Source: Escherichia coli
GTDB lineage: Bacteria; Pseudomonadota; Gammaproteobacteria; Enterobacterales; Enterobacteriaceae
Direction: 5' to 3' (one strand)
Length of the DNA: 64,000 bases
NCBI RefSeq assembly: GCF_003334355.1
Contig: NZ_QOWP01000018.1
Shown here: positions 51,804 through 51,880 of the stretch, piece after piece
How positions within the stretch are numbered: position 1 is the first letter of the stretch
Layout: every line of letters begins with the position of its first letter
Position numbers and translations under genes: made by a program
Notes under the pieces: generated by a model
Database searches by the model: none
Seen by the model: the letters and a program-made list of their open reading frames with translations, nothing else
Told to the model about the DNA's origin: nothing

Positions 51804-51880
51804 TGGTGGCTACGACGGGATTCGAACCTGTGACCCCATCATTATGAGTGATGTGCTCTAACCGACTGAGCTACGTAGCC
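51804..51880 (-). tRNA. metU: tRNA-Met (elongator, anticodon CAU)
   Basis: Reverse complement matches elongator tRNA-Met with encoded CCA; D-loop reads CAGUCGGUUAG, one base different from the second Met gene in this window. Confidence 0.9.

Follow-up and report, generated by a model that had tools for sequence, protein, structure and literature searches.

Within the 64,000-nucleotide stretch of the Escherichia coli chromosome analysed here, referred to as the window, the two genes for elongator tRNA-Met(CAU) of the metT operon differ by a single D-loop base, and the deviating base, a C at nucleotide 17 (C17) of metU, is with high probability a genuine, recent and vertically inherited point mutation, with two tRNA-Met(CAU) isodecoders presumably being made by the strain. 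The allele would go back to one T-to-C transition on the tRNA-sense strand, which would have affected nucleotide 17 of metU in a recent ancestor of the window strain and of strain PSS-12. As chance statistics are unsuited to a single base, recurrence in an independent genome was used as the criterion instead, and C17 is regarded as real because the same base is present in the independent genome of PSS-12. Hence, the base is repeated in a second genome of the lineage, and T17 is found in the nearest outgroups. Among the alternatives named in the preliminary description of this DNA, that of a genuine isodecoder variant is very well supported by the occurrence of C17 in the same gene copy of the independently assembled PSS-12.

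The surrounding gene cluster is a textbook metT operon. Five tRNA genes, each above the gathering score of the Rfam tRNA model, were detected by ARAGORN on the minus strand of this part of the E. coli chromosome, flanked by ubiF and asnB. The homologous locus of K-12 is annotated as metT-leuW-glnU-glnW-metU-glnV-glnX, which the window matches in position, strand and order. Thus, the polycistronic arrangement with leuW and gln genes between the ubiF and asnB flanks is retained, with the gene number down to five. The individual features are as follows:

52204..52232, minus strand: putative sigma-70-like promoter site (TTGACG, 17-nt spacer, CATAAT) with 10 of 12 consensus matches
52087..52163, minus strand: metT, elongator tRNA-Met(CAU) with the canonical T/U17 (ARAGORN, Rfam, alignment), identical to metT and metU of K-12
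51994..52078, minus strand: leuW, tRNA-Leu(UAG) (ARAGORN, Rfam, K-12 annotation at the homologous position)
51896..51970, minus strand: tRNA-Gln(UUG), a single gene (ARAGORN) where K-12 and PSS-12 have the tandem pair glnU, glnW
51804..51880, minus strand: metU, elongator tRNA-Met(CAU) with the variant C17 in the D-loop (ARAGORN, Rfam, alignment)
51864, minus strand: variant base, g on the plus strand and thus C17 in the tRNA, where metT, K-12 and almost all E. coli have T
51682..51756, minus strand: tRNA-Gln(CUG), a single gene (ARAGORN) where K-12 and PSS-12 have the tandem pair glnV, glnX
51651..51676, minus strand: intrinsic-terminator-like hairpin at the operon end (11-pair stem with a GC-rich core, followed by a T run)

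The gene order of K-12 at the homologous locus identifies the promoter-proximal Met copy (52163-52087) as metT and the other (51880-51804) as metU. Within 51500-52450, the site at 52232-52204 is the only sigma-70-like one; it lies upstream of the Met copy at 52163-52087 and is directly followed by the G+C-rich stretch GCGCCCCGC. This site, together with the terminator-like hairpin at 51676-51651, bears out the earlier statement that the variant resides in the downstream copy while the other copy is promoter-proximal.

Several further elements were recorded in the window. REP/BIME-type palindromic units occur at 51560-51634, 54450-54565, 60928-60967 and 62854-62969, their sites being located downstream of ubiF and in the asnB-nagD and glnS-chiP intergenic regions; the units at 54450-54565 and 62854-62969 are mutually 93-95% complementary. 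An Rfam match to the sRNA ES036 (CssrF) at 54489-54531 (41.1 against a threshold of 37.6) is probably due to the repeat. Additional Rfam matches comprise the sRNA sroC at 41070-41232 on the minus strand (170.8 bits), the rnk leader at 6336-6444 on the minus strand, a cspA-type thermoregulator 5' UTR at 19431-19873 on the plus strand, located at cspE as judged from the position in PSS-12, and STnc70 at 1030-1123 on the plus strand, which at 42.7 bits is barely over its threshold. All four of these matches are expected for this region of E. coli.

Alignment of the two Met genes of the window yields identity at 76 of 77 positions, with nucleotide 17 as the sole mismatch: metT carries T/U (plus strand 52147, a) and metU carries C (plus strand 51864, g). 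The corresponding D-loops read CAGTTGGTTAG in metT, the promoter-proximal copy, and CAGTCGGTTAG in metU, the downstream copy. This agrees with the preliminary description, which had noted a difference of one D-loop base between the copies and whose D-loop strings, CAGUUGGUUAG and CAGUCGGUUAG, match the sequence exactly. With the D-stem formed by 10-13/22-25 and the conserved G18-G19 as reference points, the variant site corresponds to Sprinzl position 17, which immediately precedes G18-G19 in the unpaired, variable 5' portion of the D-loop and falls into an insert column of the Rfam model. Stems, G18/G19, anticodon loop, acceptor end and discriminator base are all the same in the metU variant, and both Met copies score 71.1 bits against the Rfam model RF00005 (gathering score 29; model positions 1-71) with an intact cloverleaf. 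Both genes feature the CAT anticodon and are identical to metU and metT of K-12 at 76 of 77 (metU) and 77 of 77 (metT) positions, respectively. By sequence, they thus encode the elongator species, and neither initiator tRNA-fMet nor the lysidine-modified tRNA-Ile2.

The ancestry of the allele was traced by comparison with other E. coli genomes. In K-12, metT (b0673) and metU (b0666) have one and the same 77-nt sequence, equal to that of metT in the window, which makes C17 the derived state; the comparison with reference metT and metU proposed in the preliminary description locates C17 in metU of the window only, both K-12 copies having T17. A search of 5,426 complete genomes of E. coli with the 77-nt variant matched 10,857 places in 5,424 records. 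A single one of the 5,424 matching records, that of strain PSS-12 (NZ_AP027697.1, assembly GCF_036501905.1; human faeces, Ecuador), contains the variant at 100% identity, while the remaining 5,423 stay at 98.7% or below. In PSS-12, whose operon has the normal seven genes and a canonical metT, C17 likewise occurs in metU, the fifth gene.

PSS-12 is also the genome closest to the window when a 25-kb query around the operon is used (99.9% identity, runner-up 99.7%), and over 64 kb the two differ by 12 substitutions (99.98% identity), with indels confined to two tRNA-Gln units. These 12 substitutions and the difference in operon structure indicate that PSS-12 is another isolate of the clone to which the window belongs, assembled separately. 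The next-closest genomes, mip270_04 and PRO_A-1412-6M-A_ESBL, are 60-63 substitutions away from the window in 24.9 kb and feature T17 in both of their Met genes. Since the closest relative carries C17 and the next-closest ones carry T17, the mutation is assigned to the short branch shared by PSS-12 and the window strain. One of the 12 differences in 64 kb is found at window position 51774 in the metU-glnV spacer, which reads AAAACCAATTT on the tRNA strand of the window and AAAACTAATTT in PSS-12. As a separate observation, the annotation of PSS-12 includes a gene for a 625-aa rhomboid-family intramembrane serine protease between gltI and lnt (locus L003, 12591-14468), to which, by offset, about 42591-44468 on the plus strand of the window would correspond; this gene is frameshifted in mip270_04.

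The reduced operon constitutes a further difference from PSS-12. Compared with that strain, the window is short of exactly one glnU/glnW unit (109 nt) and one glnV/glnX unit (112 nt), with breakpoints inside identical 75-nt genes; the stretch concerned covers 51682-51970 in the window and 21682-22191 of locus L003 in PSS-12. A query with the 821-nt operon region of the window is covered to at least 80% by at most 50 of the 5,426 complete genomes, and a glnU/glnW junction query likewise gives an upper bound only, namely at most 71 of 5,426 genomes with a single Gln(UUG) gene. Five-gene operons account for 13 among the best 30 matches to the whole-operon query. The 2,033 "full" matches to the glnV/glnX junction query were joined from pieces of seven-gene operons and therefore provide no count of single-gene cases. 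Reduced operons are accordingly present in at most about 1% of the 5,426 complete E. coli genomes. The five-gene structure may reflect a collapse of tandem repeats in the assembly, which, in view of a double loss relative to a genome only 12 substitutions away, looks likelier than two independent deletions; real deletions by unequal recombination between the tandem copies are possible. The question of five versus seven genes is without effect on the Met finding.

Beyond E. coli, C17 was sought in one genome per species across 100,044 species with a 36-nt query comprising D-arm and anticodon-arm with C17. Nine loci were retrieved, each with a tRNA-Met(CAT) gene. In two strains of Pantoea eucrina, metT and metU alike feature C17, whereas Pantoea dispersa and P. 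wallisii display the same split as the window, with T17 in metT and C17 in metU. C17 was also present in Serratia symbiotica, in three Cardiobacterium genomes and in one Competibacteraceae MAG. The Pantoea Met loci are situated at L008 5908-6385, L009 3752-4231, L007 1960-2440 and L012 4371-4852. Their C17 genes differ from that of the window solely at nucleotide 60, which is T in Pantoea and A in E. coli. Because C17 is thus native in a near-identical tRNA of Pantoea, it represents a viable state for essentially the same tRNA. The distribution within this genus is consistent with an old polymorphism that gene conversion has made uniform in one of the species.

With respect to function, the predicted minimum free energy of -24.7 kcal/mol and the ensemble energy of -25.69 kcal/mol are the same for metT and metU, a weakly informative comparison given that neither copy has the cloverleaf as its thermodynamic minimum free energy fold. 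No structural effect of C17 was found as judged from minimum free energy, ensemble energy and Rfam score, which are equal in both copies. The determinants recognised by MetRS are the anticodon CAU, the discriminator and the acceptor stem. As these and G18/G19 are unchanged, and C17 is native in Pantoea, the variant tRNA is predicted to be made from the same transcript, processed, folded, charged by MetRS and to decode AUG normally.

The published modified sequence of E. coli tRNA-Met(m) presumably contains D in this part of the D-loop. An explicit statement of D17 in E. coli tRNA-Met(m) was not found in the literature searched, which did yield the U17 specificity of DusB. In E. coli, DusB is a mono-site-specific enzyme that converts U17 to dihydrouridine, while D16 is assigned to DusC and D20/20a to DusA (PMC5814906, PMC9176250). 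The U17 needed by a DusB substrate is present in metT and replaced by C17 in metU, and the metU product, being devoid of uridine at position 17, cannot receive D17 from DusB. Loss of a U17 reducible by DusB is therefore the only molecular consequence of C17 that appears predictable from the gene. E. coli without dus genes grows normally, and since a canonical metT is retained in addition, a near-neutral effect is to be expected. Considering the position of the base and the precedent in Pantoea, C17 is probably neutral or nearly so.

The possibility that the C arose from faulty sequencing, polishing or assembly of a repeated gene, with T17 in the true metU, was given due consideration, as the two 77-nt Met genes form a near-identical repeat pair spaced 283 nt apart, as the operon bears signs compatible with a collapse (five genes versus seven in the near-identical relative PSS-12), and as the allele is extremely rare among complete E. 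coli genomes. Nevertheless, PSS-12 has C17 in metU despite 12 further substitutions and a different operon structure, and a random error would need to hit the identical base of the identical copy in two assemblies. Moreover, the site is 16 nt away from the unique glnW-metU spacer (51881-51895), by which even short reads are anchored to the correct copy. Systematic errors of long reads typically arise at GATC and CCWGG methylation motifs, yet the variant site is outside both. A sequencing error was therefore rejected on the grounds that C17 is repeated in PSS-12, a different isolate, and the whole explanation is deemed extremely unlikely. Hardly any probability, the lowest given to any explanation considered, is assigned to an origin by recombination, whether another tRNA gene acted as donor in a gene conversion or a foreign, for instance Pantoea-like, metU was imported. 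C17 in metU of Pantoea speaks for such an origin, as does the presence of the short motif AGCTCAGTCGGT in other tRNA genes, e.g. tRNA-Phe. However, metU of the window keeps the A60 of E. coli in place of the T60 found in all Pantoea copies, and the flanking spacers are of the E. coli type and equal to those of PSS-12 and other E. coli except for one spacer substitution. No donor tract longer than one base and shared with another locus is visible, and one transition accounts for the base most parsimoniously. The E. coli character of nucleotide 60 and of the spacers led to the rejection of an import from Pantoea.

A different question is whether the mutation, if taken as genuine and vertically inherited, was favoured by selection, that is, whether C17 yields an adaptive, distinct isodecoder that escapes DusB, differs in flexibility or stability, or is spared by a nuclease or toxin directed at the D-loop. 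The only support for this comes from Pantoea, where two species keep the split into a metT with U17 and a metU with C17 and a third has both genes fixed for C17, so that the heterogeneity has persisted over the long term in another lineage. On the other hand, the E. coli allele is limited to one shallow clone with two known genomes, which is what a neutral mutation of young age would show; nucleotide 17 varies among tRNAs and is not base-paired; predicted structure and model score are unaltered; and the three Pantoea species may share C17 by descent and not by repeated selection. An adaptive role is thus considered very unlikely, and a slightly smaller chance still is given to the more specific proposal of a U17C isodecoder which, by escaping DusB or a D-loop-directed nuclease, would have been kept alongside the canonical copy, in this E. 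coli clone as well as, in parallel, in the Pantoea dispersa group.

For practical purposes, the result implies that the C17 base call is trustworthy and that the strain has two elongator tRNA-Met isodecoders. C17 in metU can serve as a clone marker, common to the window strain and PSS-12 (the one carrier among the 5,426 complete genomes), and offers a modest natural test of whether U/D17 can be dispensed with in tRNA-Met. Beyond that, the finding matters little, as it entails no new mechanism and has no bearing on an open question.

In comparison with known systems, metU of PSS-12 resembles that of the window in the identical 77-nt gene and the same operon position, but is embedded in a seven-gene operon and separated from it by 12 substitutions. 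The metU gene of K-12 shares the locus and 76 of 77 nt, whereas it features T17 and is accompanied by two of each Gln gene in the operon. The metT and metU genes of Pantoea reside in a homologous operon, though C17 is a species-level state there and a clone-level allele in E. coli. In general, differences of one or two bases between the copies of a tRNA gene are a familiar form of isodecoder variation. For instance, tyrT/tyrV and tyrU of E. coli encode isodecoders with the same anticodon and small differences of the tRNA body at non-identity positions, and both are functional. The differences between tyrT/tyrV and tyrU are regarded as fixed species-wide, whereas C17 of the window is limited to one clone; C17 metU is a very rare but ordinary allele and no new kind of feature.
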